A DNA stretch of 64,000 nt from assembly GCA_964596145.1 (NCBI GenBank), contig CAZQSR010000001.1, positions 2,023-66,022 of the forward strand. Reading direction: 5' to 3'. This stretch comes from an uncultured Ignavibacteriaceae bacterium (GTDB lineage: Bacteria > Bacteroidota > Ignavibacteria > Ignavibacteriales > Ignavibacteriaceae). A program made the translations under genes and the position numbers. Numbering within the stretch: the first letter of the stretch is position 1; each line of letters opens with the position of its first letter. Below are positions 1 through 31,097 of this stretch, in pieces. The notes under the pieces are model-generated. The model was given only the letters and a program-made list of their open reading frames with translations, was not told the origin of the DNA and ran no database searches.

Positions 1-409
1 AAATTTCATTAAACTTATCTGATAATATAATTCTATTACCTTCTTGTCTATATTTTACAAATTTACCTGACGAGTATAATGAGCCTACATTATATTTGCG
101 AGATTCAATATATCCTTCAATTCACCCATTTTGCATATTTCCTGATAAATATTGATTAGAAGTTTTTTGGTAATCTTCATAATTAGCAGTTATAGCTTCT
201 ATAATATCTACATTACAGGGCAAATCAACGTATCACTCTCCTAAATCATTTTGATCTGGTGTTACTAAATATTTATATAATTTGTATTCCTTATTCCCTA
301 TTCTATCCCAGGCTATTAACCCTAAGGTTTCAAATTCATCAGGGTTTAATTCTACTCCGTAAAGTTCTCTTGTTTGACTGTATGCTGTATTAAAAGAATA
401 TTTTTTCAT
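1..409 (-). CDS. hypothetical virion-module protein, N-terminal part (gene runs off the left edge)
   Basis: ATG at 407-409 overlaps the TAA of the upstream gene (TAATG). The frame stays open to position 1 with no TAA/TAG, but only if TGA at 233-235 and 122-124 is read as sense. Confidence 0.6.
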
Positions 410-1077
410 TATTTTGGAATTTGATTGTTAGGAGTAGGAATGTTTAAAAATCCTCTATAGAATCTTAATTTTTTCTCTGTAAGTCTTTTTTTAACTTCTG
501 TAGATATAAATGAATAATTTTCAATTGTATCATCTTTACAACAATCAAATTGCATTAATTGTCTGGGATCTTTAAAAATTGCAATTACAGATATTTTTTT
601 AAGTAAAGGAGCATTAAAAATTCATCCGTCGTACATATTATTTTCATTTGGTGTAGGTTCTATATAAACATACGGTTTTTCAGATCCTCTCCTTTGATTT
701 TTATGATATTGATATGCTGTACTAGTATAAACTTTAAACATTACTTGTCTATCTATACTACCAATAAATTCTACAGATTCTTGTGCTAAATCATTTACAA
801 TCTGTGGAATTTCAAAATGAGCTATTGGAGGTGAATAATTATTTCCTCCGCAAGGGCATTTATCTAAGGATTTACAATCTACGTCTATACAATTTATAGA
901 CATTAATAAGTCATTTCTGGGTATTAAGTTATGTTTAGAATATTCTTTAATAATTTGTAAACGTTCTTCTATGATTTCATCTTGTAGTTGTTCTATAGAT
1001 ATTGTTGGTGTAGAAGTTATTCCTACTAATCCACCAACTATATCATTATATATTGCGGAAGCTAATTTTTCTACCAT
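409..1077 (-). CDS. hypothetical virion-module protein (222 aa under code 4)
   Basis: Track ORF 622..1077 stops at TGA (622-624). Read by hand, the same frame continues to TAA at 409-411. Start ATG at 1075-1077. Confidence 0.7.
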
Positions 1078-1085
1078 TTTAATAA

Positions 1086-1115
1086 AAATAAAAAAGGCGG
1101 CGAAATTGCCGCCTT
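1086..1115 (-). terminator. rho-independent terminator after gene 1123..2211
   Basis: GGCGGC / GCCGCC stem (1096-1101 / 1108-1113), followed on the minus strand by a U-run. Confidence 0.7.
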
Positions 1116-1122
1116 AAATAAA

Positions 1123-2211
1123 TTAAGCTACAACTGTTATTGTTATAGTTGCAGTATTTCCAATAGAATCTGTTGCTGTAATTACTGTAGTACCAGCTTC
1201 TACAGGTGTAACCACTCCTGTGCTAGAATTTACAGTAGCTTTAGCTGGAGTCCCAGAAGTAAAGGTAACTGCTCCAACAGCATTAGTTGCTACTACTGTA
1301 GTAGTTTGACCATCACTTAAATCAATTGAAGTAGGATCTGCAGATAATGTTATTCCAAACGAAATACCAGCAGCAGTTAATGCCGTCTCGAATCCAGAAG
1401 TTAACCCAGATTTTACATAGAATACATGAGTAGTAGTCGATACAGCTCCAGATACTATACCTGAATCATGATCTTTTTCTACTTTATAATGTATTGTGTA
1501 CTGTGTATAATTTCCACCTAATACAGGACGTTCTTCTTTACTTTCTCCAAAGTATCTAACATTTTCAGCAGTAGGTAACATTATTGATTTTGCCATATAA
1601 GCATCATCTCCAAATCCTACTTTTCCTGCTGTTGTAACTGCACCAGTAGCTACTACAGTTTCTTTCATTTGAGCAATAGTATTATTATTGTCGTACTCTA
1701 CTTTATAAAGTAATACCGAACTAAATCTTTGTACATCTTCTTTTGCAGTAAGAGTTATCTCTGCTCCCGAATTACTAGCTTTAAACAGACTTTGTCCAAA
1801 TCTATCTTTTAACTTATTTAATTCAGTTACAAACAGTCCCGCTGTAGTTGCAGCATCTGTTTTATATAAAACTTCAATAGTTTGAGGTTTCTTAAAATCT
1901 ATAGAATAATTAGTATATTCTGATTTAGTCGACTGAGAAAGCATAACTTCCACAGTTAATTTTAAAATATCTCCAGCGGTTGCCGAAGGTACAGTTATCT
2001 TTGCGATTTCTTTTACGCCTGCTGAGTATGCTCTTTTGTGAGCACTTACAACTTTATCTTTTAAGAAAGTTCCTGCTTTAGCTACTTTAAAAATGTTATT
2101 TGCACCTGAATACATTGCAATATCATTTCCATTTGCGTCAACTAAAACATTTCCTTGGTAATCTAAGGCTTTTGCCGAATTAATAACAGTTGTTTTTGTA
2201 AATTGATACAT
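1123..2211 (-). CDS. virion protein with C-terminal bacterial Ig-like (Big_2-type) domain
   Basis: Intact 362-aa ORF ending in TAA. The C-terminal ~80 aa (DPTSIDLSDGQTTTVVATN...ATVNSSTGVVTPVEAGTTVITATD) has the Big_2 pattern. A terminator follows. Confidence 0.7.
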   Translation of the reverse strand: MYQFTKTTVINSAKALDYQGNVLVDANGNDIAMYSGANNIFKVAKAGTFLKDKVVSAHKRAYSAGVKEIAKITVPSATAGDILKLTVEVMLSQSTKSEYTNYSIDFKKPQTIEVLYKTDAATTAGLFVTELNKLKDRFGQSLFKASNSGAEITLTAKEDVQRFSSVLLYKVEYDNNNTIAQMKETVVATGAVTTAGKVGFGDDAYMAKSIMLPTAENVRYFGESKEERPVLGGNYTQYTIHYKVEKDHDSGIVSGAVSTTTHVFYVKSGLTSGFETALTAAGISFGITLSADPTSIDLSDGQTTTVVATNAVGAVTFTSGTPAKATVNSSTGVVTPVEAGTTVITATDSIGNTATITITVVA

Positions 2212-2244
2212 TGTTATAAGTTATTTTTTGTAAAAAAATTATTA

Positions 2245-3195
2245 TTATCTTTTTTGTGGTTGTTCTTGTGAAGGAATAGCAATTGATTGACTTACTGGAA
2301 TATTTGTTTGTAATCTAGGATCACTTGCATTTTCCATAAGTAATTTAACCAGTTCATTTACTATTTCTTGACATACATAATCTGGGAATTCTAATACTTG
2401 GGAGTTATCCTCTACTTCGTCTATCTGCTCTTGAGTCAATCTTATAAATTGAGGCACTTTTAAATAATCTATATAAACTTTACTTAATTTAAATAAACTA
2501 TCGTCTTTACCATATCTTATCTCCATCCTTACTTTAGATTTATTCCCATATCTCAAACCGGAAGCTTTTTCTACACTATTACCATTACTAGGTTCTGAAA
2601 GTATATAACCTGTGCCAGGTTCATTTACCATTGGCTCTGATTGCTCGCTCATAGTTACTTCAGGAGTATAGTTTACTTTATTAATAGTACTAGAATCTAG
2701 GGTTGGAAAAGTATTTACTATATTTACATTATTTATATAAAAATATGGATTTTTATATGATGGTCTCATATAGTAATTATTAATTATTTGAGCAAACATG
2801 TCTGAAGTTAACCTCTTAGCCCCAAAATGTACTTTATCATTTACATTATAGCATTTAAAAGTTTTATTAACATCATACTCTACTAAACAATTCAATATAT
2901 GTAAATAATCATCAGGTAGATCTACTTCATAAACTTTGGTAAATAATGCAGATCCTGTATAATCGTTATTTAAATTTGGAGTTAATACCGCAGAAGATTT
3001 TAATACCCTCAAATCATCAGATTTTTGTTGGTTTATATCATAAAAATTATAACTTTTATTGATATATTGATTAATTGCTTTATTTATAAAATAATTGTAA
3101 TCCTCCAGTAATAAACTAGGAGCCTGTCATTTATTTAACTCAATTAAAGCATATTCGAAAACTTGTCGTGATGTGATAGTTGTAATATTTAAAAA
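2245..3195 (-). CDS. hypothetical virion-module protein; start codon unresolved
   Basis: Track ORF 2245..3012. The frame stays open upstream to TAA at 3196-3198 through one TGA (3127-3129), and the extension looks protein-like. No ATG/GTG/TTG occurs between 3195 and 3012. Confidence 0.55.
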
Positions 3196-3375
3196 TTAAT
3201 CACTAATTTATCTTATAAATTTTGGTAGATTGTCATTTCTTGTTCATAGATACCATTGCATTTTTTAGCTAGTTTTTATTGCTGAACTAATACTACTTAA
3301 TTTCAATCCCAATTTTTCTTTAGCTTCTTTTTACTAACAATTAGTTTTTATAAACAATATAAGTTATTATTCTAA

Positions 3376-4278
3376 TTATTTCTTTGGAGTTTGTTTTGCT
3401 GCAGTAGTCTTTTCTACTATATCCTTACCTGAATCATCAAAATGAGGTATTCCACTAACAATAGAGTTTTCTAAAGTTTCTAATTCTTTTTTAGGTAATA
3501 AATTTGGATATGTCTCTAATTTAATAGAATCAACCAATTTTTTATATCGCACATCTCTAAATAGTAAAATAACTGCTTCTATTGAAGCACCAAGTGTTTT
3601 GTCATCATATCTGTAAATTCCTTCACCTTTTCTAATAACTCCTCTATCTACAGCATCTAAAATAAATAAATGCATTTTCCAATCCTCACCTTCATATAAA
3701 TCAATTATCTTTTTAGGATCTTTTTCAGCATTTTCAATAAGAAAATCAAGTATATCAGCCGGCATAGCATTTGCTAAATTGCGACCTAACACACGACATT
3801 TTTTAATTCTCTCTGATTCTGAGTCTTGATATACATAATCACATGCTCTGTGAATAAGTTGTTTTTTAGTAATTCTTGCTACAGTAATTTCTCCTGGACG
3901 TTCTACGTACAAATCAGCATTACCATATCTATGTGCATTCCCGTCAATTACTAAATTTCCTTGAGCATCTCTCTCAAATCTATTTTTTGCAATCCAATCA
4001 CAATGCTCAATAGCTTGCCAATTAGCAGCATCAACCACATCATCTAAGTCAAATTTTGTACCATCTACAATTTGAAAAACATGGTTGGCTGGCACATAGT
4101 GAACAAGTCCTTTATTCATTTTAGTAATTTCCTCCTCTGATAAGATCATATCACCATTAGAATTTACAGTTTTTACACATGCAGGAAGTTTTCCAGTTCT
4201 AGGATTAGGACAAGGTTGTATGAAGTAAATTTGATTAACTTTTCCAAAAACACTTCTTATAATTATTTCATTATTCAT
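3376..4278 (-). CDS. hypothetical protein (300 aa)
   Basis: Intact ORF ending in TAA, packed just downstream of the capsid gene. All Trp codons are TGG. Confidence 0.7.
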   Translation of the reverse strand: MNNEIIIRSVFGKVNQIYFIQPCPNPRTGKLPACVKTVNSNGDMILSEEEITKMNKGLVHYVPANHVFQIVDGTKFDLDDVVDAANWQAIEHCDWIAKNRFERDAQGNLVIDGNAHRYGNADLYVERPGEITVARITKKQLIHRACDYVYQDSESERIKKCRVLGRNLANAMPADILDFLIENAEKDPKKIIDLYEGEDWKMHLFILDAVDRGVIRKGEGIYRYDDKTLGASIEAVILLFRDVRYKKLVDSIKLETYPNLLPKKELETLENSIVSGIPHFDDSGKDIVEKTTAAKQTPKK

Positions 4279-4327
4279 ATTTCATTTTTTATATATTCTT
4301 TTTGTTTATCTAAATTTTATATATCTT

Positions 4328-4352
4328 AAGAGAGGGAATAAATCCCTCTCTT
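4328..4352 (-). terminator. strong hairpin 3' of the capsid gene (putative terminator or mRNA stabiliser)
   Basis: AAGAGAGGGA / TCCCTCTCTT 10-bp stem about 20 nt after the capsid stop codon. There is no clear U-run on the minus strand. Confidence 0.5.
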
Positions 4353-4372
4353 TATTTTTTATTTAATAATTA

Positions 4373-5803
4373 CTAAACTTCTTCAACAATAAAGCTGCGA
4401 TAAGGAGCAAAATGTACAATTCCTGAGTAACCAGCAGCAATAAGTTTAGATCCTGCTACAGGACTTGAAACTATACCAGATGTTATTCCATCAACACCTC
4501 CTACGCCCGGATATTTACTAGAAACGAATTCAGCACCTTTTAAAGTAAATGCTGCAACAGCTGGTCTATTTTCTACCATATCAGGAGTCAAATCTAAACA
4601 AATTCCATAAGCTTTGGTTGGATATTCACGACTTAAAGCACGGTCAACCATGAATGTTACAGTATTACCTGCTACTTCATAAGATACAAAAGTTCCACCA
4701 ACTTTAATTGGATTATCGGCTTTCACCATCGAATTTGTAGCTTTAGAATACATCATAGTTGGAACTGATTGCCATGATTTTAACCAATCTCCAAGAACTG
4801 TATTAACTTGAGTCCACAATCTATCATTTACAATGAATGTGTAATGATTACCAGTAGGAGCTACTGCTTTTTGACTCATTTGGTCAAGTACAGTATTCAT
4901 TACGTTGATTGTCCATTTAGCAAATTTATATTTAGATGCAAATCTCTCTAGCTGTGGTACTAAACCATCTCCTGCTATTAATGGTCTCTGATCTTCTGTC
5001 ATTACAGTTGATTTACCATTAGCATCCATTGTTGTTTTTTGCCACAACAGGCCATTATTCTTCACAAATTGGAAATTGTCCAGAAGGTCTTTTTCCATCT
5101 TGTTTAATTTGAAGATTTTTTCTTTCAATTCACCAGTACCTTCGCCTTGAGCAATTTTGATGAATTGAGTTTCCATTTGGGCAAAACGAGACGAATAAGA
5201 AACGTCTACACGGTGTTCTGTCAAATAATTGACATGTTTTTCAATATTTGATTGGTACTTCACAAATCCAATTTCATGATACTCAGGCATAATGTTCGAT
5301 AAGAATCTCGATTTCATACCTAATTGGCAAGAATTAGCATCTACAATTGCAGAATAATCAGCATCAATTAATTGTACTGTGTATTCCCAGAAATTATCCG
5401 CTTTTCTAATTGGAGTTGTTTTAACAATGAATTGTTGACGTGATCCATTTACTTTGAAAGTATCATACTTTTCATAGTATCTTTCTTTAAAGTACATCAA
5501 TACATCAGCACCAGCAGCACCATCTCCTACAGGAGCTGCAGCAAATTCCACTTCTTTGATGAATTCAACATCAATTTCCCACTCAATACGAAGTGAGTTA
5601 ATCGGTTGGAATTTATTAACCGATTTTTGATTATAGTAAACATTTAAAAGAGCTTCAGTTAGGAAGGTAGCAGTGTTTTGAGTATTCATTCTTGCCATTA
5701 CGCCCATCATGTGAGGACGATTACCTAAAAACTTGTAGAAGTCTTCGTATGTTCTACTATGAGCCATTTCAGGCTTAAGATTTACATAACTTGCAATAAC
5801 CAT
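4373..5803 (-). CDS. major capsid protein (putative)
   Basis: 476-aa intact ORF directly downstream of an acidic coiled-coil scaffold-like gene and followed by a strong hairpin. Size and position are typical of an HK97-fold capsid protein. It has no in-frame TGA. Confidence 0.6.
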   Translation of the reverse strand: MVIASYVNLKPEMAHSRTYEDFYKFLGNRPHMMGVMARMNTQNTATFLTEALLNVYYNQKSVNKFQPINSLRIEWEIDVEFIKEVEFAAAPVGDGAAGADVLMYFKERYYEKYDTFKVNGSRQQFIVKTTPIRKADNFWEYTVQLIDADYSAIVDANSCQLGMKSRFLSNIMPEYHEIGFVKYQSNIEKHVNYLTEHRVDVSYSSRFAQMETQFIKIAQGEGTGELKEKIFKLNKMEKDLLDNFQFVKNNGLLWQKTTMDANGKSTVMTEDQRPLIAGDGLVPQLERFASKYKFAKWTINVMNTVLDQMSQKAVAPTGNHYTFIVNDRLWTQVNTVLGDWLKSWQSVPTMMYSKATNSMVKADNPIKVGGTFVSYEVAGNTVTFMVDRALSREYPTKAYGICLDLTPDMVENRPAVAAFTLKGAEFVSSKYPGVGGVDGITSGIVSSPVAGSKLIAAGYSGIVHFAPYRSFIVEEV

Positions 5804-5815
5804 TTTTTAATCTAT

Positions 5816-6805
5816 TTAAAAATTTAAGTCGTGAATAGAGTTTATTTCTTTGTTGTTTGTTTGCACCACAACTTGTCGCTTATCTGACTTTTTTAATTTA
5901 GCTATCTCTGATTCGTATACATTCTTTAATGTGTCAAAAGCTTCTTTGCCGTAACGTAAAAACCACGCTACCTCATAAAGTTTTGTTGGATCATTTAATG
6001 CTTTATAAAAATTACTAGTACCGTTTTCATCTAATTCTAATAAGAATGTAAGAACTTCATTTTTTTCATCATCTTCTAACTCAATTCCGTATAAATCTTC
6101 TGTTTTAATAGCAATATCTACCATTCTTTGAGAAAACTCATCGTACTCTTGTTGTCTTTGTAATAATAACTCTTCTTCTTGAGCCTTTATTGACTCATCT
6201 TCTAAAGCTTTGTATTCGTCGCGAATTTTAGTAATTTTTCTTTTAAAAAGATCTTCATTCTGAAGTTCTTTTTCTAATTCCGCTACTAGTTCATCTTCTG
6301 TTAAATCGAATTTATTTTTTAAATCTAAAACATAAAGTTCCTGATCTGTGTAATTATCTATTTCATAGGCTTTTACATGCTCGCCATTAATTTCAGATAG
6401 TATTTGTTTTTTATACTGTTCGAAGTATTGTGTTGGGGTTAATCCACTAGTTCTAATTGTATTTAAAAATTCTACTTCTGAATCCTCTAAATCTACACTA
6501 GGTGATTCATTAGAATTTAAAATATCTAATTGTTCTTCTATTGATAAATCATAGAAATTAATTTCTTCTTCAGTGTCATCTTCATTAATGATTTTTATTT
6601 TACCATCTATGATTCCTTTATTCGCTAGCAATGTATCAATTACACTGGTTGTAGGTTTTGTATCAGAATTAGTGAATATATCACCTTCTACAAAATCGTT
6701 TTCTACAAAATCTAATGTTTGTTGTGGGTCTGTAGGTAAATCTTGATCATCTAATCCAAGGTCTACTTCATCGAAAATGTCTTTTTCTGTCATTGTCATT
6801 GTCAT
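5816..6805 (-). CDS. scaffolding protein (putative)
   Basis: 329 aa, highly acidic with a Glu/Lys-rich coiled-coil composition, immediately upstream of the capsid gene. Confidence 0.55.
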   Translation of the reverse strand: MTMTMTEKDIFDEVDLGLDDQDLPTDPQQTLDFVENDFVEGDIFTNSDTKPTTSVIDTLLANKGIIDGKIKIINEDDTEEEINFYDLSIEEQLDILNSNESPSVDLEDSEVEFLNTIRTSGLTPTQYFEQYKKQILSEINGEHVKAYEIDNYTDQELYVLDLKNKFDLTEDELVAELEKELQNEDLFKRKITKIRDEYKALEDESIKAQEEELLLQRQQEYDEFSQRMVDIAIKTEDLYGIELEDDEKNEVLTFLLELDENGTSNFYKALNDPTKLYEVAWFLRYGKEAFDTLKNVYESEIAKLKKSDKRQVVVQTNNKEINSIHDLNF

Positions 6806-6822
6806 TTAAATTGTTTATTATT

Positions 6823-8427
6823 TTAATTTAACGCTTTCGTTAAATCTATATATCCTATTGTTGCCTGATAACTATCTGTTGCTAATTGACCATACCCTTT
6901 TGCTCCATAACCAATTCATAGTTTGTTTGCTTCTATATAATGAAAAGTAGTTAACCCCATATGATTTTTTGCCCATCCTCCATCATCAGGGTTACCAAGT
7001 GGAACATGAGCTCCAATTGCTGGGTATTCTGGATAGTTATCATCATCTCCATGTAAAGATAAAATTACTGGTCCTTTAACAAAAGTTCAAGTTGAATCAG
7101 CATCATTAAATTTCCATAAATGAAATTCATGTTTTACATAATTTCCAGAATTTGTCAATCCTTCACCACTAGAAAAACAATATAATTCATTGTTAAATAC
7201 AAATAAGGCTGAATTGGCAATTGCATAGCCTATAACTGAGGCTTCTTGTTGAAATTCAGGTGTTTCGCCTAAATCATAAATTATGCTATGTTGTGTGTAA
7301 GGACCTTCTAAATATTTACTTTTAAATACTACCCTTTTAGCTGTAGATGTAACTCCATTACTATGTGTTCCATCTTGAATACTAAATAAGAATTCTCCTT
7401 TATAATATGCAGTAGATAGACCGTATCCTGCATTAGAATATCCAGATTCTGGAGTATATATTACATTTAACTCTACAAGTTTTCTGTATGATAAATCATC
7501 ATTAAAAACTAATGCTGCAAATTTATTCATAACATTCGACGAATTATATAATCCAGCAATTACTATATGATGACTAGAATTGTATGGACTTTTAATTCCT
7601 TGTTGCAATGGAGTAAATCCTTCATATCCTGAAGGAAGAAGTCCATCAAAAACTCCTACAGAATCATTAGATCAAATATTTGTTCAAGAACCAAATCTAT
7701 CTTCTGCTTCGAATACTTTTGTTATATATGCTCTTTTTATACCTACTGCTGAGTTAGTTTCTCCTGTAACAAGTGCTTTATATTTTCCGTCTATTGTTTT
7801 TCAACTATATCCGCAACATACTACTTGACGATTCCATGTTCCATTTACTTTAGTTGCTTTGAATGTAGGATCTCATTGTAAAGTTAATCCTCCTGCTAAA
7901 AATGAACAGATAAATCCTCTAGTTCCTACTGGAATTGCAGAAGCTTTAACTAATGTTAATTTTGCGCAATTTGAATATTCTATTCCAGAAACAGTCTGAT
8001 TTCCTAAATATTCTATTGATGCAATTCTAATTGAACTATTTATTGTTATTGATCAATCATCTTTAAATCATCCCAACATTCAATCTCCTGGAATTTCAAT
8101 TAATCCTTTAATATAGGGAACATTTGCTAATGTTACTTCTAATCCTGAGTTTACAATTGCAATTATCGGTGTTTCTACATCTCTAATTCTTCCACTAAAG
8201 TCACTACTTGCTAACATATTGTCTCCTTCAAGATTTCTATATAATAACTGTGGCATCATATCAAGTGATTTATTAACTAAACTTTTATATTCTACTAAGT
8301 AATTATTTAAATCCTCAATCGAAATCGTCTTATTCTCAACAACAGGACTTCCATCAATCAAGCAAATTCTCGTAGATTTAGTAGGATTAGTTATAATTGG
8401 TTTTTGTGACCATTTTTCGTTACTCAT
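6823..8427 (-). CDS. tail/baseplate-associated protein (534 aa under code 4)
   Basis: Track fragments 8080..8427 and 7087..7608 plus the untracked stretches are one frame. I read every codon from 8427 to TAA at 6823-6825. There are 9 in-frame TGA (8080, 8068, 8053, 7873, 7801, 7684, 7672, 7087, 6916) and no TAA/TAG. Confidence 0.8.
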
Positions 8428-12916: not shown

Positions 12917-13171
12917 TTATATTTCTATTCATTGGTCATTAACTCTAGTATATTTTATTCCTGATATTGTGGATATTCAAGTAGATCCTTCGACTGCCTC
13001 TAATCCATTTTCGATTGCTGATATTGCATCATATATACTTTTAATAAGATTTTCTTTTGTGATTTTATATCCTACAGGTGGATTTCCAGAAATTACATAA
13101 AGATATGCATTATTTGGAATTTCTAATATTTCTGGTAACTGAGAAAGTTTGACTCCTTGCAATTCTGACAT
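12917..13171 (-). CDS. hypothetical small protein (84 aa under code 4)
   Basis: Track ORF 12977..13171 stops at TGA. The frame continues through a second TGA (12929-12931) to TAA at 12917-12919. Confidence 0.6.
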
Positions 13172-21200: not shown

Positions 21201-23369
21201 AGATCTAGAATCATATTCAGGATATACACTTTTATCCTGCATTCTATTATTTCCAACTAATGAAAACGGCCTAACATTTCCATTGGAATCAAGTCATTGA
21301 AATGGCATAGCTCCTTTAAAACATATATATGTAGATGTTGGAGCAGCCCCATACTTATTGTCAAGTAATATTTTATAATCTTGTAATTTTTGATCTAAAT
21401 CACCTTGTACTCTATTATTACTAAATCTATAAGTTATTTCGCCATTTCCTGAAGTATCTCCATATAATTTTATACCTGCTTGGACAGTCTGCTCCATAGT
21501 TGGATACCATTCTCAGTTGCTGTAAAAACGGACTCTACGGCCAAAATTAGCTACATCAGAAATTATATTTGTAAAAAATGCATTAGTACCTGCAAAATAT
21601 TCAAATCTTTGTTTTGGTCTAAGCCCTCCAATTTTACTACCTGTAGGCAAAGAAGCTTGTAAACTTGCCCCATAAACTGCAAACTCTCTAATAGCTACTT
21701 CTGATGGGAATGTTAGTCTTATATACCTAGCATAACTATAAGCTTCTGGTATAGGTACAGTTAACCAAGTATCTTCAGTCTCATATCCAGATACCGTTGC
21801 AGCATGTGCAAAATTAGCTCCTAAAGAAGATGTCCAAATATGAATATGCTCTACTATTTTATCGTAATTTATAAATATACTATCAACTCGTTTTATCTCC
21901 TTTAGATCTATAATTAATTCGTATGGACTATAATTAGTTCATGTATTCTTAAAACCTGTATAAGTCATAGCAAACATTCTGTATCCAACTTCTGAAGTTT
22001 CCTGAACTATTCCATTCTCTTCTACGATATTACCATTAACCATATATTCAACTTTGTAATAGTCTCCAGGAGAACCTCCACTTTCTGCAGGAACTTCTTT
22101 TAAATGATGTAAAAAATCGTATACATCATATTTTGTAACTGGTAAAACATATCCGACTGTAGATGGCATAAAAACATCATCAGTTTTAGCCATTACTACG
22201 TTAGAAAGTAGTCCATATTTATTCTTTGCAAATCCTGATACAGCAAAGTAATATATTTTTCCAGAATCCAATCCACTTATTATGGTAGACATCTGAACTC
22301 CATACGGCATTATTCCTGAAGTCACATCTATATAATTTGCTGACAAATAATTATTTTCTGTTATTTCTACCGTAGAATAATATATTCTATACTTCTCACA
22401 AAGATCTTGATTACCATGAGCACCAGCTGCAGAATAGTGAAGCATTATCGATTTAGAACTTATTAATGCCACACTTAGATTATTTATCCTAGACGGGGGT
22501 CTGCCATAATACTCATTTCTATCAAGAAATCAAATAACACAAACATCGGATGGTGTTACTATCGGTTGAGTAAGAGTTATTGTATCCGAAGCTATGGTGT
22601 AATCTCGCAAAGGAAATAAAAGAATACCATTTACATATATAAATACACCATCATGAGATTCTGGAATACTACTTGTAGTTATTTCAATTACTGAACCGGT
22701 AAAATCATTGAAATTTTGCCGTGCTGAAAAAACTTCCTGTAGTGACGGTATTACTTCAATTGGGATTTTTCCTTCAGGCGAAATCACCGGAAATCCCCCG
22801 ACAGCATTTGCCATTGCGTCTACCCCCTCTTCAATCTGTTTGAGCGTTTTAGGAGTTTCACCTTCCGAGTATCCGTGGTCAGCTTTTGCATTCAACACTT
22901 CAGGAGACATTTCACCGCCTGCTATTAAATCAATTTCTTGTTCAAGCTCTTTGAGTGTTTTAGGAGTTTCACCCTCAGAATATCCGTGATCGGCTTTAAA
23001 TGATAAATCAATATTTGTTAATTGGGCTGCTGCATCTACTGCAGGCTTTTGTAATCATTCTAGATACTCTTCTTGTGTTTTTCCAATGTTATCTTCTTGA
23101 GCTACCCAAATCTGATAGGCACTTAATCCCGGAGCTCCACTTAAGGAATTTAATCACTCAGATTCAGTGCCAATATATCCAGACCTTTTTGCTAAATCAT
23201 ATGGATTCTCTGTAATTTTTTTCCATTTAGACTCATTACCAAAATCAGGAGTATTATTATCTGTTAATGATAAATAAGCTCTTCCATTTATACTAACTAA
23301 ATCTAAAATACTATACGATGTTAAATTGTTAGGTTTTGGAGTTATTGCTATTTTTAGTTCTATTCTCAT
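18279..23369 (-). CDS. giant fibre protein with FN3-like repeats and a GH5-like glycosidase segment (1696 aa under code 4)
   Basis: Seven track fragments (23154.., 22530.., 21939.., 21294.., 20613.., 20100.., 18675..) share one frame. All gaps were scanned: 13 in-frame TGA, no TAA/TAG, down to TAA at 18279-18281. ELENEP plus following motifs in 20613..21185 resemble the clan GH-A (GH5) acid/base region. FN3-like repeats occur in 18675..19757. Confidence 0.75.
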
Positions 23370-24369: not shown

Positions 24370-24644
24370 TATTTTTTGGTAAGTTTGGCCGCAAGCCCAA
24401 GAGCTCCACAAGCAGTTAATATATAACCAGAAATTGTGAAAATTAATGGATGAACACCATATCCTTGTAAGTTTCATAATACATCAGCACTAATAACTCC
24501 AGCAGCGGATGTTCCTATAATTATTGTGAAGTTTAAAATTTTTTTTCAAAATTCATTAATTTCTTCTCCCCAGCGATTTTGTATCTCTCGTATGATATTT
24601 TGTACTTCTCGGATGATATTTTGTACTCCTCGTATTATCTTCAT
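24369..24644 (-). CDS. small two-TM membrane protein (91 aa under code 4; holin-like topology)
   Basis: ATG at 24642-24644 overlaps the portal TAA. It has two in-frame TGA and two hydrophobic segments (ILNFTIIIGTSAAGVISADVLW, VHPLIFTISGYILTACGALGLAA). The N-terminus carries a tandem VQNIIRE repeat. The track misses this gene. Confidence 0.55.
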
Positions 24645-26839
24645 TATGTATTCTGTATTTCGTCATTCTTTTTATTATTATCTAAAAGCTGCAGTCCTTC
24701 TAATTGAATTCTTTTCTTTTCTCATTCGAGCATTTCTTCTTTGTAAGCACTATCAGTTCTGGCTTTAAACCAATCTATATTTTTTGAATGTTCTAATTTT
24801 TCTTTTTCAAGTTGTAATTTCTCATTATTCAATGATTGGATTTGTTGTTGTAATTTCTGAGTTTCCTGAGTAGCCTGTTTTAACTGTTGATTAAGTTGTT
24901 CCACTTGTTGTGTTAATTGACCAACTTGATTTGCTTCTTCTTTCTTAATCTTTAAAGCATTTAAAACATCATGTTTCATTTTAGTCAGTCCCGTTGCAGT
25001 TACTACTTCAAGTATTACTTCCGGGTCAACAATACCTCCTTTTATAAATTCAAAGGTTAATTGTTTCATAGTTTCCTGCTCTTTTAGAACATCTTGTGTA
25101 TCCGCAATATGAACATCATGATCAGTAAGTGTATAATATTCTGGAAGTGCTGTAAATGTTTTATTTAATTTATCACCTAACACTAATGTTCCAGTAATTC
25201 CATTTTTATATACAACTTTTGCAAGATTTAATAAATCTATCAACATTTCACGAGTCATTAAATCCATTGTGTGATAGTACTGTTTAGTTATAAAACTAGA
25301 TTGTCTAACTCCAACTTGTACATTAGTTACAGCATCTCGCTGTTCAATTCCTCCAAGTTTTTCTCTAAAAACTCCTGTTATTGTTGAACAAGTTTCTTCT
25401 ACTCTCTGAATTGCAATATCAATTGCTTGAATTGTTTGCATTTTAATTGTATCATCAAATCCTCCAAATGTTGTATTCATTGGTGGAAGTCCCTCTTGAG
25501 AACTATCGATCAGAGCAAGTCCTTGTTTCTTGTAAGCTTTCCACTTCATTAAACGTTCAGTTAAATCTGAACCTAAAAATTTAGGTAAATATGCTACATC
25601 AATTCAATCACCAACTGTTCCAGATTCTGCAATTACATTATCACGATAGAAGCATAATACATCAAATTTATCCTGTAAGTTTGCAGTAGCAAGCATTAAT
25701 GATATTGGATCTCCGTTTCTATCTGCATAAAAAATTCCATTTATTGATAAATTACACTCATTAGGTTCTGTGATACTTCTGAATACTTCTTCTGATTTAC
25801 CAAGTGGAATATATATTTGTCCTCCTATTCTTACTCCTTCATATCTGTTTACAACATACTCTTTTCCTTCTTTTTCAGTTTTTAATCACTCTACTTCATA
25901 AACAGGATACATTTTGAAGTATTTGTTAGTATTCCTTTCATATGGTAACAATGGAGTAACTTCAAATCCTCCAAGTATTCCATCAGATATTGTATTTCCA
26001 ACTACTGAGTCATAACTTCTCAAATAAGTAGTACTTGAACCATCAATACTAAAATCTTCAAGTGTATCAAGTACATCTAAATCTTCTTTTAAAATTAAAT
26101 GGCCATATCTTGCTAATATTTGATCTTTAGTCAGATATTCACGATAAACTGCTCTCATTGATTTCTTTAAATATGGTGAGGCTGGATTCCTATCAATAAA
26201 TGTATTAAGTGGATTTAATACTTGTAACTTCATACTTGTTTCAGACTCAGATTTAAAAGTCTTATAATAACAAGTTCCAGAAATAAGTAAATCCGTTAAT
26301 AATGTTTTTCTTTTTTCTTTGAAATCAATGTCTTGTGATTGGGTTATTCAATCTACAATATTTTGTGCTGCAATTTCATAATCTGATATAAAGTTTTGTT
26401 CCAATGAAGATTTTATTTCAAGAAGCTGTTTTTCTGTAATTGGATCATTAATCTCTTGTCCATATACAGTACTAAGAATTGTATTCTTTAATATTTTTTT
26501 AAGACCTGAGACAACTTCTGAATGAATTTTTAATTGTTTTTCTCTATATATATTTGATAAAGTTTCTTTATCTTTACAGGAGATTCTTGGAAGTAACGGT
26601 ACACCCAAATACTCCCCAATTAGAACATCTACATGTTTTCTTACTAGTGGGACAAATTCAACTGAAGTAGCTGTTCCTATTCCATAATTTTCTTCTAGGT
26701 GTCTAAATTGTTCTGGATCTCTTTTTCCGTGGTAGTAGTTATATGCTTTAATTAGTTGGGTTTTTTCATAAACAAGGTCATTAATTGCCCTATCAATGTT
26801 CACAATAATCTCAGCTTGTTCTTTATTTCATTTTTCCAT
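24644..26839 (-). CDS. portal protein (putative, 731 aa under code 4)
   Basis: Track fragments 26348..26803, 25886..26233 and 24722..25549 share one frame. The gaps contain only TGA, with 5 in-frame TGA in total. The ATG at 26837-26839 overlaps the upstream TAA, and TAA is at 24644-24646. Its size and its position next to the terminase fit a portal. Confidence 0.6.
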
Positions 26840-27123
26840 TATCTTTCACGTTCTTCTGTTAATCGGTTTACTCTATAAAAATAAACTCTAATATAATTCC
26901 GAATTCTAAATTCTTCTTTGATAAAATCCAAAAATTCTTCATCAGAGTTAGCATCACAAGCAATACTTGTAGGAGTCATGTAGCTAGGTAAGCCTATATT
27001 TAATCTATAAGATGTTCCATTTTGGGTAACATTTATAGATCCCTCGTATTCTGACTTATATAAATTCCTTATATAATCAAGAATCATCTGCACTAATTCT
27101 GGTCTTTCCATCCCTCTCTTCAT
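26839..27123 (-). CDS. hypothetical small protein (94 aa)
   Basis: Intact ORF ending in TAA, lying between terminase and portal. Confidence 0.6.
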   Translation of the reverse strand: MKRGMERPELVQMILDYIRNLYKSEYEGSINVTQNGTSYRLNIGLPSYMTPTSIACDANSDEEFLDFIKEEFRIRNYIRVYFYRVNRLTEERER

Positions 27124-29173
27124 TTGTTAACGGTATTACTCCGTAATGTTTATATCCTTTAGAATCTGTGTATCATCCAATATCTCTAAATTGATTACTT
27201 TTGGGTTCCCTTTCTGTTGGTTTTTTCATTGACAATTCTTCATCCCCAAGCTCAGCCATTCCCATTGCAGCTACAATGTCAAATTCTTTCTTTCTTTCAT
27301 CAGAATAATTTAACAACTGATCAACTACCTCTCTAAATGCAATCGTATGTGAATAATCTATACAAAAATCGTATATTAATTCCCTATAATGATTAATTAC
27401 TTTTGGAGGTGTTGGTGTGCCATACATGTTAGAGTTACCTTTAGATACATCAGGCATAGTTGCTCTTGGTCTTTTCATAAGTAGATTTAAATATTTATGA
27501 TCCCTGAAATAAGTTAAAATTGCAGTTCTAGTAGATTCTAAAACAGCTTTACATCCATAGTAAGTTAGTAGTTTTGCTGCGGTTTCGTAAGCTTCTCTAG
27601 GATCTTTAGGTCTATCTTTATATATCGCAACATACTTAGGTTCAGATAGTCCAATAACCCTTTTTTTAATTATAATACAAAATTCCGATACTTTCCCTGA
27701 TGAATCTTTTTGTGATGAATCCGCTGTTCCAATATCAATTGAGTCTATACCGCCTACATATAAATGTTGATACTCAGACCCATTCTCAGAAATCATTGGA
27801 TGTTCTAAAATTTTAATCTTTCCATTTTCATCATCGAATCTCCATTTAACTCTTCCAGTTCTTTTTTCAGTGTGTTTATCAATTTCCCATACTAAAGATC
27901 CTGTCTTGGGCAATTCTACTGTTTTATAAATATCAATAGCTGCCATTTGCTGAGCTAATTCTTCTCTTGGGAAAAACTCACTATCTTGCTGAATCAATGC
28001 TTCATCAATAGTAAAACAATACTCAGATTTATATTCTAGTAAATCTTTGGGATCTCCTACTTTTTTAGCCCTTTCTTTTAGATAGTATTCTTTTGCCTGT
28101 TCTGGATTACATCATCCTCTACTATCAACTAATTCATAGACTATTCTATACGCGGGTATAAATAATCCAGTTGTTACTCATCGCCCATCTTCGGTATAAT
28201 TATGCCTAACTGGTAAAATATTATATGCATCAGGATTCAGTGTTAGTTTTTTCAATCCTTCCATTGAGCTTGCTTTAGAGGAACCACCGGTACCAAATGC
28301 TAGTCGTCTACCAACTCGTTTTCCTCCTAACACTGTTATTAAAGCTTCTCCTTTAACCCACTTTTTTATTAAGAGATTATCTGCTCCAGCTTCTTCATAA
28401 ACTAGTAACTGAGTTCTATCTCCTCTTAATTTATCTGGATCATCACAAACTAATCCTTCAACTTCTGACATATGACCTGATTCTGCTCCATCTTTTGATT
28501 TTTTAGACGCTCTTTTATGAGTTTTTGTATTAATATTCATACGCACTCGCCTAAATGCCCCCTCAGTGTTATCGTTAAGTCAGTCTAATTGTAATCATAT
28601 TTTTGAAAGTGTAGGACCTAAATGCCCTGCGGAAAATGCTGAAATAACTGTGCGGAAATTAGGAATAGTAGTGTAAGGTCTAACTGTAAGTGATGCAGCA
28701 ATTTCCGACCAACCTATTCCACGAGATTTCAATGCAGACGTATCTTTCTTCAATAATTCGCACATTTCTGAATAATGAAAATACTCATATTGAAAAACAA
28801 AGAACTCTGGAAACCCATAATCCTGATTTATTGTTCCAGAATCAGAAGATTTTAAGTTGTAGAAATTCAAGAAGAAATAATTATCCCCAGTTAATCTGTA
28901 ACCATTGGATTCATATCCTTCATTACATCTTCTCTTTCTTTCAATCCATCAATCTCTATGAGTTTTAGAGCCAATAGGAATTGAAGTTGGACTGTATCTT
29001 CCAGTCCTTAATTTATTTATTGCGTCTTCTTTAAATCAGTTTGGGTTAAAATCTAATCCTTCTCTATCATTAATTGGCCGATATTTTGTTAAATAGTATG
29101 ACTTGGTATTATCAAAATACTCAATAGTATCATTAGGTCCAAAATCTCAACGTATTCCATCTATTATTTCCAT
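27056..29173 (-). CDS. terL: terminase large subunit (705 aa if TGA 27173 is read through; 666 aa if it terminates there)
   Basis: Fragments 28595..28870, 28178..28546 and 27173..27997 share one frame, with 8 in-frame TGA. ATG at 29171-29173 lies directly after the upstream TAG. Walker-B-like LLVYEEAG and a nuclease-domain GGIDSIDIGTADS motif are present. Confidence 0.75.
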
Positions 29174-29175
29174 GA

Positions 29176-29751
29176 CTAATCAAACATTCCGACTTCTGTA
29201 TTTCCTCTAATGGAACTTTCAGTATCTAGTCCTTTTTTAACTTGTAATTCTAACTCTCTTAGTGATGAAATTAAATCCTTACAACCCTTAATCTCTGCAA
29301 TTAAATCTTTACTTTTAAAAATTGGTTTTCCAGTTACCGTATCACGCTCTTGTAAATCTACATTATTTAAATAGAATATTTGTTTATCTACAGCAGACAT
29401 TGCAGCTTTTAGTAACTTTATATCAAGCGATGAATTTTGTATCTCATCATATTTTCTACAAGCTGCTTTAAATAAAGGGTCGTTAAATTCTTCATCTGTT
29501 AATTTAGAATCTTTTAAAGATTCTACATGACGTTCTTGCTCTGGGAATTGAAAATAAGGACTTTCTCAATCAAAGAATAAGTAAATATACTTTAATTCTC
29601 TAAAAGCCCTTTGTTTCTTTTTTCCAGTTTTATCGTCTTTAGTTTTATTTCGAGCATCTGCTAATAAATCTTCAAATTCTTTTATTAACAATATATTTTC
29701 CTGTTCTATTGAAACGCTACCACTTACATTATCATATACGAAAAATTTCAT
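29176..29751 (-). CDS. hypothetical protein (191 aa under code 4), candidate small terminase by position
   Basis: Track ORFs 29566..29751 and 29176..29400 are in the same frame, joined through TGA at 29566. It ends in TAG and lies immediately upstream of terL. Confidence 0.55.
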
Positions 29752-29761
29752 ATTTTATTTT

Positions 29762-30766
29762 TTATTTATTAAATCCTTGTTTAGGAACTAGTCCTAGAAC
29801 TGCTGGAACATTTACAGGCTTAGCTAAACTAGGATATTCAATTTTTACTTCCCCAGTATTTCTACCTTTTTGTTTTATTAATTTTAACAGTTTCAAATTA
29901 TCAGCAGCACTGAAATTATAACTACTCATTCCTAATTCTTTTGCCAATGCAGCTCTTGCTGTTTTATCAGAGGCTCTTCCCATTGAGTTGAGGTAGTCTA
30001 CAACTGAAATGTTAGGGTTTGATTGGACTGAAGTAGTAGTTTTAGCTGGCACCTTAGTTTCAGTTTCAGCTGGAGTTGTTACTGTTTCAGTTTCAGTTTT
30101 AGGTGCAATAGTTTGTACTGGTTTAGCTGTTACAACTGTTGTGGTTTTAGTAATTGGTTTAGCAGGCTCTCTCAACATTCCAGATTTCTTTTTGGCATCA
30201 TATCAATATTGAGTTTTTGGTACATAATTTAAATCTCCATATCTGAAAAAATCACTTAAAGTATTAACTAAATTAGTTATAGACGCTCTCTGAGATTCAG
30301 CATTTGATTTTTGTCTGTAATAGTCAGCAGCGGATTTAATTTGATAACCTTGTTGCAACTTCTGAATTTCACCGCCTTTTTCAAGTTTAGGTTTACATCC
30401 ACAAGCACAACTCTGTACCATTTTTCCACCCTTATCTTTTTTTGTAACTAACTCACATCCACAAGAGCATTTTTTAGACTTCATCTTTCCTCCCTTTTTA
30501 AGAAATTGTAAATAGTCTAACTTTCCTCCTTCTTTAAAATAAGGCATTTGTTCTTGCTCTTGTTCTAGAGCTGATAATTCTTGCTCTAATTTACCAGATT
30601 CCCCAAGATCTTGAATGTATTTCATAATTTCATTTTTATCCTGCACATTTTTATTCAAACTTGAGATAATCTCTTCCTCTGACCCATTGTAAATTTCGGG
30701 TTTAATTTCTTTAGCTTTTTTTACTACTAATTGTGTCAGTAGTTGTTGGAATTTTTCCTCCTCCAT
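29762..30766 (-). CDS. hypothetical protein (334 aa under code 4) with a Cys-rich middle and a Thr/Pro/Glu-rich linker
   Basis: Track ORFs 30203..30766 and 29762..30178 are in the same frame, joined through TGA at 30203. It ends in TAA. Confidence 0.65.
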
Positions 30767-30767
30767 T

Positions 30768-30989
30768 TTATATTTTCTTTAAATCTTTAGTATTGAATAC
30801 ACTCTCCTGTAATTCTCCTGTATTGGTAAATCATCGGCATAAGATTCCTTGAAAGAAATCTCCTTTAATACTTTCAGTTTTAATTGTTTTTGTAACTCTG
30901 CGAATTACATACATTGTTGGTTTATTTGGCAACTCTTGTCTAAGAGTCACCATATCACCAGGTAAAAAGAATACTTTATCTGTTTCCAT
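30768..30989 (-). CDS. small DUF2158/YodC-like protein (73 aa under code 4)
   Basis: ATG at 30987-30989. The sequence is GDMVTLRQELPNKPTMYV...GILCR-W-F, with the W encoded by TGA at 30831-30833. As I recall this family, the C-x-W-F Trp is conserved. The track misses this gene. Confidence 0.55.
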
Positions 30990-31097
30990 AATTCATTTAT
31001 TTTTATCGGTCAATTCAGAGGTAGTTTCTCTGATATTTTAAAAATTCGACCCATTCATTATTTACCATTTTTAATTCCCACTTTAAGGTGTGGATAC

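Follow-up and report, generated by a model that had tools for sequence, protein, structure and literature searches.

The question raised by this locus, a 64-kb window (the whole stretch of DNA that was analysed) that is part of the large, AT-rich (31% G+C) genome of a tailed gut phage, is whether TGA, which under the standard code breaks the minus-strand late genes into short fragments, is a sense codon in those genes and a stop codon elsewhere. We consider it very likely that TGA stands for tryptophan in the virion, packaging and lysis genes, that the remaining genes follow the standard code and that a phage tRNA(UCA) is the decoder. Recoding of this kind has been reported for gut phages (Yutin 2021, PMC7886860; Borges 2021/22, bioRxiv 10.1101/2021.08.26.457843; Pfennig 2022, bioRxiv 10.1101/2022.06.29.495998), as the original prediction for this DNA correctly stated, and the same model of recoded late genes with a suppressor tRNA was published in the first two of these studies. 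The phenomenon is therefore not new; the window offers a clear-cut case of a switch known from crAss-like and other gut phages.

Open reading frames of the recoded block

Minus-strand ORFs were delimited by a stop-to-stop scan in which TAA and TAG alone served as stops. Re-scanning the merged ORFs for in-frame TAA or TAG revealed none; in the two alternative frames, these stops turn up at ~8% per codon, and the chance that a frame of 1436 codons would be open to both is ~1e-52. Re-calling the genes with translation table 4 rather than table 11 raised the coding density of the first 32.4 kb from 0.71 to 0.93 and lengthened the ORFs from a mean of 195 aa to one of 459 aa, with 39 table-11 fragments becoming 22 table-4 ORFs, including those for the large terminase subunit (terL), the portal protein and an amidase endolysin. 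From 32.4 to 64 kb, the same change of table shifted the coding density merely from 0.77 to 0.79. The recoded block lies on the minus strand and extends from before position 1, where it runs off the window edge, to ~32.3 kb. The predicted split, with TGA as sense in late genes and as a stop elsewhere, was borne out, but its boundary falls at ~32.3–32.4 kb rather than at 31 kb or at the strand switch.

Six small genes (29176-29751, 29762-30766, 30768-30989, 31098-31664, 31636-31908 and 31890-32318, all on the minus strand, as are all the late genes below) form the upstream end of the block, and five of them contain one in-frame TGA each; in 31890-32318, the TGA comes after a signal-peptide-like N-terminus. 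There follow terL (27056..29173; 705 aa, nine TGA and five TGG), which matches phrog_6681 over residues 45-660 (E 9e-63) and for which 1017 homologues were found; the portal protein (24644..26839; 731 aa, five TGA and two TGG; phrog_6547, E 5e-46); two small recoded genes (23827-24477, with one TGA, and 23360-23833, with two); and a virion protein of tail or fibre type with fn3 domains (18279..23369; 1696 aa, 13 TGA and 11 TGG). The N-acetylmuramoyl-L-alanine amidase endolysin (13173..13760; 195 aa, two TGA; phrog_435, E 4e-30) is matched by PDB amidases over residues 4-189. An 84-aa ORF (12917..13171; two TGA, no TGG) separates it from the most heavily recoded gene, which encodes a virion protein of 1436 aa (8605..12915; 20 TGA and 11 TGG), and a 534-aa virion protein (6823..8427; nine TGA and four TGG) lies beyond. 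Recoding extends at the left edge to a partial ORF (1-427, two TGA) and to ORF 409-1077 (one TGA); in the family of the latter, 77% of the Trp codons in relatives are TGA. The profile matches of the table-4 terL, portal and endolysin proteins run full length, and the only domain matches of the large late proteins were fn3 and BppL_N. Our TGA counts agree with those first given for the 6823-8427, 8605-12915, 18279-23369, portal and amidase frames, and correct that for terL, which had been put at eight.

The tight packing claimed for the merged ORFs was found at seven of 21 junctions, which overlap or lie 1–2 nt apart, but not at seven others, where the gaps measure 94–576 nt. The TAATG stop/start overlap that had been described has no exact instance in the recoded block, the sequences at close junctions including TAAAATG, TAATATG and TAGTCATG.

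Codon use within and outside the recoded block

In the late genes, 69 TGA and 62 TGG lie in frame, whereas the other genes have 84 TGG and no internal TGA (Fisher p 7e-20). TGA and TGG together make up 1.29% of late codons, which is close to the share of TGG among the codons of the other genes (1.43%), and the nucleotide 3′ of a sense TGA shows the same distribution as that after TGG.

The head of the leftward unit, beyond the boundary, is standard or dual-coded and carries, on the minus strand, an exonuclease gene (32537-33472), an ORF (33469-34188) that ends in an ATGA overlap with its TGA at 33469-33471, PhoH (34358-35041), an ORF at 35177-35356 and, at 35359-36234, an HTH/HNH-like gene whose fifth codon is TGA. 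The non-structural module (36843..64000, mainly plus strand) encodes NAMPT, NMNAT/NUDIX, RNase H and SPFH proteins, among others; judging from their gene content, the non-recoded genes are presumably early. Of the 50 ORFs of 45 codons or more that were called outside the recoded block, 10 terminate at TGA, as does a 36-codon ORF at 61698-61808. All six ATGA overlaps listed in the original prediction (57288, 58042, 59883, 60071, 60289 and 61804) are present, and a further one at 50226 brings the total for the plus-strand module to seven. Interior TGA is absent throughout ~5,900 non-structural codons; in table-4 ORFs outside the block, the triplet is confined to approximately the last 20 or the first 11 codons, and each TGA stop of a non-structural gene is followed by TAA or TAG 2–19 codons downstream. 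The non-recoded genes of relatives are too diverged for an orthologue comparison of TGA stops.

Recoding of the late module, although it extends to most of its genes, is not uniform as had been supposed, TGA being missing from the capsid block and from one fibre gene of high G+C content: seven of the 22 late genes have no TGA, and together these contain 20 TGG (Fisher p 5e-8). The head block (1123..6805), which gave profile matches to phrog_11589 and phrog_215, comprises an Ig-domain structural protein (1123-2211), an ORF with one TGA whose start is uncertain (2245-3195), a further ORF (3376-4278), the major capsid protein (4373-5803; no TGA and seven TGG; weak match to phrog_11589, E 1e-8) and an acidic scaffold-like protein (5816-6805). 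The head genes avoid TGA in 31 related loci, with a TGA/TGG count of 21/194 for the major capsid protein vs 626/306 for other ORFs on the same strand; the studies of TGA-recoded gut phages that we consulted make no mention of this clade-wide avoidance in the capsid block. The fibre-type protein (13907..18247; 1446 aa, no TGA and eight TGG) is encoded by a 4.3-kb gene with a G+C content of 0.39–0.43, compared with ~0.30 in its surroundings; this gene was probably acquired recently, from a source with the standard code.

Recoding might be real and yet unrelated to timing. Once a UCA suppressor is carried, TGG could drift to TGA in a near-neutral manner under AT pressure, with selection removing it only where expression is very high, or the suppressor could mainly serve to harm protein synthesis in the host through read-through of host TGA stops. 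The unexceptional nucleotide context of sense TGA agrees with such drift, as do the free swapping of TGA and TGG among relatives and the depletion of TGA in abundant head proteins, which is what would be expected of a slightly costly codon; an anti-host role of the suppressor has also been raised previously (PMC7886860; PMC12386605). However, drift alone would not empty ~5,900 non-structural codons of TGA unless these were translated before the tRNA acts. The recoding of lysis genes also argues against it, as does the presence of a TGA near the start of terL (codon 9), the portal gene (codon 4) and the 8605-12915 gene (codon 11), positions within the first 11 codons that would give the tightest block. 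We regard this explanation as possible but rather unlikely.

A phage and host that both use code 4 throughout, as in the Mycoplasmatota, with non-structural genes that lack TGA by chance, would be a much less probable explanation still. The genome is AT-rich, like those of code-4 organisms, and the TAA or TAG close behind each non-structural TGA ‘stop’ would make read-through harmless; but in an AT-rich genome with code 4 a preference for TGA would be expected in all genes, contrary to the distribution given above, and such a genome accounts neither for the seven ATGA stop/start overlaps nor for a phage that brings its own tRNA(UCA). The crAss-like terminase and the lack of Shine–Dalgarno signals point instead towards the Bacteroidota, and the closest GenBank relative, MT835470.1, is fully standard-code (table-11 density 0.97), with TGA at 26 of 114 stops. 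Genome-wide code 4 was rejected, TGA not being sense throughout and 10–11 ORFs terminating at it.

The amino acid specified by TGA

The standard-code relative MT835470.1 was used as the reference for inspecting the alignment columns at TGA codons. At the 15 alignable columns, it has W (seven), Y (four), F (one), Q, N and V, and chance would give seven or more W among 15 columns with a probability of 7e-10; the 15 TGG columns gave a similar profile, with W (seven), F (three), Y (two), L, N and V. Residues 1-730 of the portal protein align to MT835470.1, where the TGA columns are Q, Y, W, W and N; for 29176-29751 and 30768-30989, it has W where our phage has TGA. Among recoded relatives, TGA and TGG interchange at the same columns of terL. 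The contexts QWDPTF, YSWKTIDG and GSWTNIW, previously noted as Trp-like, are present, and the W codons in them are TGA. Profile matches, TGA columns, TGA/TGG swaps and codon frequencies all support the predicted reading of TGA as Trp in the late module. The published proteomic validation considered here (PMC9523058) concerns TAG-to-Gln phages only.

The decoder tRNA, which had also been placed inside the window, is an opal-suppressor tRNA with anticodon UCA at 36261..36334 on the minus strand (ARAGORN; Rfam tRNA, 56.5 bits); it heads the leftward transcription unit and is the only tRNA within the 64 kb. It is 73–74 nt long and fits the standard tRNA model from end to end, with a 7-bp acceptor stem, a 5-nt variable loop and a G73 discriminator; CCA is not encoded. 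The tRNA is syntenic in three relatives (L001-L003), with compensatory changes in the stems and an invariant anticodon loop, CUUCAAA. Its body is no closer to tRNA-Trp than to other isotypes, and charging with Trp is therefore predicted from the protein alignments, G73 and C35/A36. Genes for release factor 1 and tryptophanyl-tRNA synthetase were not found within the 64-kb window.

It is highly improbable that TGA means glycine (code 25), selenocysteine, arginine or cysteine instead. Compared with known isotypes, the tRNA body gives an ambiguous picture, one relative's tRNA(UCA) being closest to tRNA-Arg(ACG); ARAGORN assigns ‘tRNA-SeC’ to any UCA anticodon, and tRNAscan-SE called a similar phage tRNA ‘Trp or Arg’ (PMC12386605). 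Against this, homologues have W, Y or F at TGA columns, and TGA and TGG interchange at identical columns. None of 120 terL homologues, nor MT835470.1, has glycine at a TGA column, and code 25, in which TGA is Gly and which is used by phages of Absconditabacteria/Gracilibacteria, was rejected on this ground. Arginine is only sporadic in terL, appearing in single homologues at two TGA columns, and at one TGA column in just one of two MT835470 alignments; moreover, position 20 of the tRNA(UCA) is U and not A20, the identity position used by ArgRS. Selenocysteine was rejected because the length, variable loop and acceptor stem described above are not those of a tRNA-Sec, and is also disfavoured by 69 TGA at aromatic columns, vs the few Cys/Sec sites expected. 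Finally, the 39 short table-11 fragments would also be expected of pseudogenes in a decaying prophage, or of sequencing or assembly errors, but frames interrupted solely by TGA, with no TAA, TAG or frameshift, full-length profile matches and the same pattern across dozens of independent metagenomic contigs make this scarcely credible.

Comparison with known recoded systems

The crAss-like TGA-to-Trp phages (PMC7886860; Zeta-group Lera, PMC12386605) likewise have TGA in terL, portal, other structural and lysis genes, with the standard code elsewhere and a phage tRNA with a UCA anticodon, and they share with the phage studied here a human-gut origin and an AT-rich genome. They also contain homing-endonuclease genes, which are represented here by the HTH/HNH-like gene and by GIY-YIG genes in relatives, and inteins, which occur here in relatives (the terL homologue P0061 and the ribonucleotide reductase of L003). 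Relatives of our phage lie on contigs of ~96–213 kb, some with arrays of 24–25 tRNAs, although these 64 kb differ from crAss-like phages in having one tRNA only. Crassvirales terL sequences are 27–30% identical to that of the window, with E values down to 2e-48, which suggests a distantly crAss-like terminase. The major capsid protein, however, has no Crassvirales capsid match by tblastn at E 1e-3, its matches being two unclassified 117–122 kb faecal phages only, and membership of the Crassvirales is therefore no more than a possibility.

Phages of the Agate clade and of other gemstone clades (bioRxiv 10.1101/2021.08.26.457843) also have a suppressor tRNA, close standard-code relatives (here MT835470.1) and genomes of ~100–200 kb, and for them, too, recoding has been proposed to lock the translation of late and lysis genes. 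In contrast, the standard-code relative of Agate is depleted of TGA at stops (4/146), whereas TGA ends 10/50 ORFs in the non-recoded half here and 26/114 in MT835470.1. The ‘multiple genetic code’ phages found with Mgcod (bioRxiv 10.1101/2022.06.29.495998) similarly have one block in an alternative code and another that is effectively dual-coded, as is the non-recoded block here, whose proteins would change by only a few residues if their TGA stops were read as sense; that study reported few code 11/4 genomes and gave mixed results as to which of the blocks is the dual-coded one, whereas the assignment here is unambiguous. In Mycoplasma and Spiroplasma, UGA is likewise read as Trp by a tRNA(UCA), but those genomes are reassigned throughout and lack release factor 2, while here the change affects one viral gene class and TGA still terminates others.

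Proposed mechanism and host

No Shine–Dalgarno signal was detected at the genes and this, together with the TATCTTTG motif upstream of genes and the crAss-like terL, points indirectly to a Bacteroidota host that probably uses the standard code, for which the TGA stops of the presumed early genes also speak. The motif occurs nine times in the window, and five of the nine copies are intergenic and face a downstream gene. One copy, TATCTTTG(CA) at 36608..36615 on the minus strand, lies ~270 nt upstream of the tRNA and may represent a −7 promoter element of the Bacteroidota type. A host-type promoter motif in this position could mean that the tRNA is expressed early, which would weaken the view of the suppressor as a timer.

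The comparisons above show that the late genes are recoded as a block, that their TGA codons have the meaning of Trp and that the tRNA(UCA) is conserved. We propose that this phage-supplied tRNA would decode UGA in the late genes, would most likely be charged by the host tryptophanyl-tRNA synthetase and would compete with release factor 2. The use of TGA is graded: the terminase, portal, tail/fibre and lysis genes are rich in it and the abundant head proteins nearly lack it, which fits a suppression that is less efficient than ordinary decoding. The non-recoded genes have no internal TGA and keep it as a terminator, and should therefore be translatable by unmodified host machinery; after the switch, they would gain only short read-through extensions of 2–19 codons. 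The arrangement may thus act as a translational lock, in which the TGA-bearing late and lysis genes would yield no full-length product until enough suppressor tRNA had built up.

Reading frames of the late genes

When the window (G+C 30.8%) was scanned for ORFs with only TAA and TAG as stops, the short minus-strand fragments called with the standard code (table 11) between position 1 and approximately 32.3 kb joined into long ORFs. The fusions pass through TGA alone, as had been predicted, and give frames at 6823–8427 (534 aa, nine in-frame TGA codons), 8605–12915 (1436 aa, 20 TGA) and 18279–23369 (1696 aa, 13 TGA), together with the portal (24644–26839, 731 aa, five TGA), the large terminase terL (27056–29173, 705 aa) and an amidase endolysin (13173–13760, 195 aa, two TGA); around 10 smaller late genes on the same strand of the recoded block carry one or two TGA codons apiece. 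The in-frame TGA codons of terL were also found, but they number nine rather than the eight originally counted. TAA or TAG accounts for about 8% of codons in the late genes' two non-coding frames, so the chance of a 1436-codon frame free of both is near 1e-52.

Recalling the genes with table 4, in which TGA is read as Trp, raised the coding density of 1–32.4 kb from 0.71 to 0.93, reducing the ORFs from 39 to 22 and increasing their mean length from 195 to 459 aa, with a near-zero effect on coding density in 32.4–64 kb (0.77 to 0.79); reading TAG as sense gave no gain in either half. PHROG profiles matched the merged proteins of terL (phrog_6681, E 9e-63, residues 45–660), the portal (phrog_6547, E 5e-46, residues 22–710) and the amidase (phrog_435, E 4e-30), and also identified the major capsid protein (MCP, phrog_11589), an Ig-domain structural protein, PhoH and an exonuclease. 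The matches extend over the TGA positions, and the merged ORFs are therefore real genes. Some junctions are as tightly packed as the original prediction described, but seven gaps between late genes span 94–576 nt. The frame at 2245–3195 (minus strand) codes from its 5′ end, yet its first ATG is at 2799, leaving an apparent 576-nt gap (2800–3375), and the gene probably has a non-ATG start or is otherwise unusual.

Identity of the residue encoded by TGA

A terL query with the TGA codons masked as X retrieved 1017 homologues and, in the best 120 of these, the TGA columns held Trp at seven of nine positions and Phe or Tyr at the other two. Public gene callers had translated relatives of this phage with table 4 and, because the three relatives compared at the DNA level (L001–L003) are themselves recoded and their existing translations were made in this way, the Trp at these columns arises partly by construction. 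This circularity was removed by comparison at the codon level and by use of a standard-code relative, MT835470.1. The recoded relatives carry TGG at TGA sites of the window and vice versa, and also TAT or TTT. MT835470.1 (117 kb, human faeces) has a coding density of 0.97 in table 11, to which table 4 adds nothing, and an unbroken 762-codon frame across terL. At 15 TGA columns of terL, the portal and two small genes, it has seven Trp, four Tyr, one Phe and one each of Gln, Asn and Val; at 15 TGG columns of the same genes it has seven Trp, three Phe, two Tyr and one each of Leu, Asn and Val. The two residue profiles are indistinguishable. The probability of seven Trp in 15 columns is 7e-10, given the background Trp frequency. 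Gly was found at no TGA column, either in the best 120 terL homologues or in the MT835470.1 alignments; Arg occurred in single sequences at two TGA columns of the terL homologues and at one column (position 699) of the MAFFT alignment with MT835470.1, beyond the tblastn alignment.

The codon usage of the window was measured as well: TGA and TGG together account for 1.29% of codons in the late genes, compared with 1.43% for TGG in the other genes, and the base following a sense TGA is distributed as is the base following TGG. Alignments of the amidase with PDB structures were tried as a further test of the encoded residue and rejected; both TGA sites are silent on this point because the positions are variable in homologues (Cys, Ile and Thr).

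TGA as a stop and the boundary of recoding

Beyond 32.4 kb, the table-4 ORFs contain TGA only within their first 11 or last 20 or so codons, and these TGAs are genuine stops or lie upstream of the genuine start. Under table 11, TGA terminates 10 of this region's 50 ORFs and also a 36-codon ORF at 61698–61808, and seven TGA stops form ATGA overlaps with the next start (50226, 57288, 58042, 59883, 60071, 60289 and 61804), including all six that had been listed previously. Among non-structural ORFs with 100 codons or more there are 84 TGG and no TGA, compared with 69 TGA and 62 TGG in the late genes (Fisher p 7e-20). The plus-strand half encodes nicotinamide phosphoribosyltransferase (NAMPT), an NMNAT/NUDIX protein, RNase H, an SPFH protein and proteins of no assigned function, a non-structural content that suggests these genes are early. 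Orthologues gave little purchase on the TGA stops: the NAMPT gene had no IMG/VR relative, and the 702-aa gene led to four relatives with two recognisable shared orthologues, neither terminated by TGA. Read-through of the non-recoded TGA stops would add only 2–19 residues, and such short extensions correspond to what Pfennig et al. term ‘dual-coded’ (bioRxiv 10.1101/2022.06.29.495998).

The late minus-strand module is recoded as proposed, but the boundary does not fall at the strand switch (approximately 36.7 kb); the upstream limit of recoding is the gene at 31890–32318. The leftward unit has no internal TGA over its first 4 kb, a stretch comprising a tRNA, an HTH/HNH-like gene, PhoH, an ORF of no assigned function and the exonuclease (32537–33472); the TGA that closes the ORF at 33469–34188 shares an ATGA with the start codon of the exonuclease. 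The cumulative GC skew has its minimum at 36–40 kb, from which genes run leftward on one side and rightward on the other; this minimum could mark a replication origin or reflect transcription-linked skew.

The decoder tRNA

The decoder tRNA that had been placed in the window was located by ARAGORN and Rfam at 36261–36334 (minus strand), with anticodon UCA, and is the sole tRNA found there; the ‘SeC’ label given by ARAGORN reflects the anticodon alone. It has 73–74 nt, a 5-nt variable loop and an end-to-end fit to the general tRNA model, with no encoded CCA end. A tRNA(UCA) occupies the corresponding position, upstream of PhoH, in all three recoded relatives, and the four copies show compensatory differences in the acceptor and anticodon stems while sharing the anticodon loop CUUCAAA and the discriminator G73. 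The identity elements of bacterial TrpRS are G73 with C35 and A36. Comparison with 49 tRNAs of related phages and an E. coli tRNA-Trp placed the tRNA body nearest to amber suppressor, Arg(ACG) and Trp tRNAs, favouring no single isotype, and the case for Trp charging rests mainly on the protein alignments because this similarity is not decisive. No RF1, TrpRS or other code-change protein was found in the 64-kb window.

Directly downstream of the tRNA, the HTH/HNH-like gene (35359–36234, minus strand), a putative homing endonuclease, has a TGA at codon 5, shortly past an ATG preceded by AGGAGG, a rare Shine–Dalgarno-like site in the window.

Uneven use of TGA among the late genes

Recoding of the late genes is not uniform, contrary to the original prediction. 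The head block (1123–6805) and a fibre-type gene of 1446 aa (13907–18247, minus strand) have no TGA and 20 TGG, compared with 69 and 42 in the recoded late genes (p 5e-8); the zero for the head block refers to ATG-started genes, since the stop-to-stop frame 2245–3195 contains one TGA. The base composition of the head block is ordinary. In 31 related IMG/VR loci, L009–L039, we counted 21 TGA against 194 TGG in the MCP, 29 against 130 in the remaining head-block genes and 626 against 306 in all the other ORFs on the same strand with 100 codons or more (paired Wilcoxon p 4e-6, for loci that are not phylogenetically independent). That the most abundant head proteins are spared is consistent with suppression being costly. 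The eight Trp codons of the 1446-aa gene are all TGG, and the gene, which lies in a G+C island (0.39–0.43, against about 0.30 in its surroundings), was probably acquired recently by horizontal transfer from a standard-code source.

The first TGA comes early in terL (codon 9, 27147–27149), the portal (codon 4, 26828–26830) and the 8605–12915 gene (codon 11, 12883–12885), and the early terL position is TGA in L001–L003 alike. Such codons may be a deliberate block near the gene start, in a pattern that start-codon uncertainty could inflate.

tmRNA, candidate promoter motifs and other elements

A phage-encoded tmRNA, missed by ARAGORN, was found at 63132–63566 (plus strand) as a full-length match to Rfam RF00023 (66.5 bits); its acceptor stem contains a G3:U70 pair, and the tag frame reads DKKVISFARPAAVQLAA and closes with TAA. 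In two distant relatives a tmRNA occupies a comparable position (L041, 16512–16921; L043, 14637–15045), and the standard-code MT835470.1 has neither a tmRNA nor any tRNA. A prophage inserted at a host tmRNA gene was considered and rejected, as composition is phage-like on both sides and distant phage relatives have a similarly placed tmRNA.

The composite Bacteroidota promoter TTTG-N17-21-TANNTTTG was not enriched, nor was TANNTTTG by itself in intergenic DNA; only the specific form TATCTTTG(CA) was positionally biased. Five of the nine TATCTTTG copies are intergenic and point at a gene, usually as TATCTTTGCA, the TATCTTTG(CA) sites lying at 8497, 34226, 36608, 37682 and 41909 on the strand of the downstream gene, the copy at 36608 about 270 nt upstream of tRNA(UCA). 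The motif, which as a sequence resembles the Bacteroidota −7 promoter element, precedes recoded genes, non-recoded genes and the tRNA alike.

Two further regions were recorded. The stretch 45515–47497 (about 2 kb) has no ORF above 70 aa under any code and includes, at 46940–46991 (plus strand), a sub-threshold type-P1 twister ribozyme match (43.8 bits against a gathering score of 67.2; E approximately 1e-8 for the searched stretch), with the conserved core partly retained and one stem absent. Within the 436-aa ORF 53511–54821, tandem repeats at 53735–54086 (plus strand) have periods of 12, 24 and 36 nt, with as many as roughly 16 copies, and would give the protein a repetitive segment.

Relatives and host

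The terL protein is 46% identical to that of MT835470.1 (unclassified) and 27–30% identical to Crassvirales terminases (crAss001, Azobacteroides phage ProJPt-Bp1 and cr-series phages), and the MCP matched no GenBank phage besides MT835470.1 and MT835492.1; for these reasons we describe the phage as crAss-related and do not assert membership. Contigs of the relatives are 96–213 kb, and more distant relatives have arrays of 24–25 tRNAs. In 11 relatives (L026–L027, L030–L036, L038 and L039) the MCP tblastn match is partial (residues 1–184, 185–475, 1–273 or 1–432), and the terL homologue P0061 has intein/homing-endonuclease domains. Both findings suggest that core genes contain introns or inteins, a feature also reported for Zeta-group crAss-like phages.

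Shine–Dalgarno motifs precede seven of 77 starts, the same as background. Missing Shine–Dalgarno motifs and a TATCTTTG-type promoter-like motif are typical of Bacteroidota, which use the standard code, and we infer a standard-code Bacteroidota host.

Mechanism and significance

The gene block requires UGA to be read as Trp, the phage has a conserved tRNA(UCA) capable of reading UGA, and the remainder of the genome can be translated without this tRNA. Under the translational lock that Yutin et al. (PMC7886860) and Borges et al. (bioRxiv 10.1101/2021.08.26.457843) proposed, host TrpRS would charge tRNA(UCA), which would win over release factor 2, and full-length late and lysis proteins would await build-up of the tRNA, placing a lock on assembly and lysis. 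The main rival is neutral codon capture with selection against TGA solely in highly expressed genes, or else a role in anti-host read-through. The non-structural genes, however, are entirely without TGA, and TGA lies close to the starts of terL, the portal and the 8605–12915 gene, both of which favour a lock without proving it.

Head proteins that are nearly TGA-free clade-wide, against a terminase, portal, fibres and lysis genes loaded with TGA, often near the gene start, lead to a quantitative reading, which we think rather unlikely: that TGA density is tuned per gene rather than per module, as a throttle as well as a timer, with the tmRNA perhaps in the same toolkit. If so, the tmRNA could rescue ribosomes running off host or early phage messages upon UGA read-through.

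The finding of late-gene TGA-to-Trp recoding is correct, and the phenomenon, as the original prediction acknowledged for gut phages, is already published: late-gene-limited recoding with a phage suppressor tRNA in crAss-like phages (PMC7886860; PMC12386605), and the same recoding in the Agate, Jade and Sapphire clades (bioRxiv 10.1101/2021.08.26.457843). Annotation of phage genomes block by block for their code has also been described (bioRxiv 10.1101/2022.06.29.495998). Metaproteomic validation of phage recoding in PMC9523058 covers TAG-to-Gln only, and the cited papers contain no protein-level validation of TGA-to-Trp. We found no mention of a tmRNA in the cited recoding papers. The additions made here are of modest value: a precise position for the change of code, the sparing of capsid genes throughout the clade, a fibre gene that is GC-rich and not recoded, and the conservation of the tmRNA. 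Because the recoded genes, decoder tRNA, standard-code genes and exact boundary lie together in one compact stretch, the window is useful for annotation, where a standard-code gene caller breaks up half of it, for validation, as it could serve as a test case for phage TGA-to-Trp at the protein level, and for new testable detail. The current picture of phage recoding is unchanged by the window, and the capsid sparing and conserved tmRNA bear on the efficiency and cost of the code switch.
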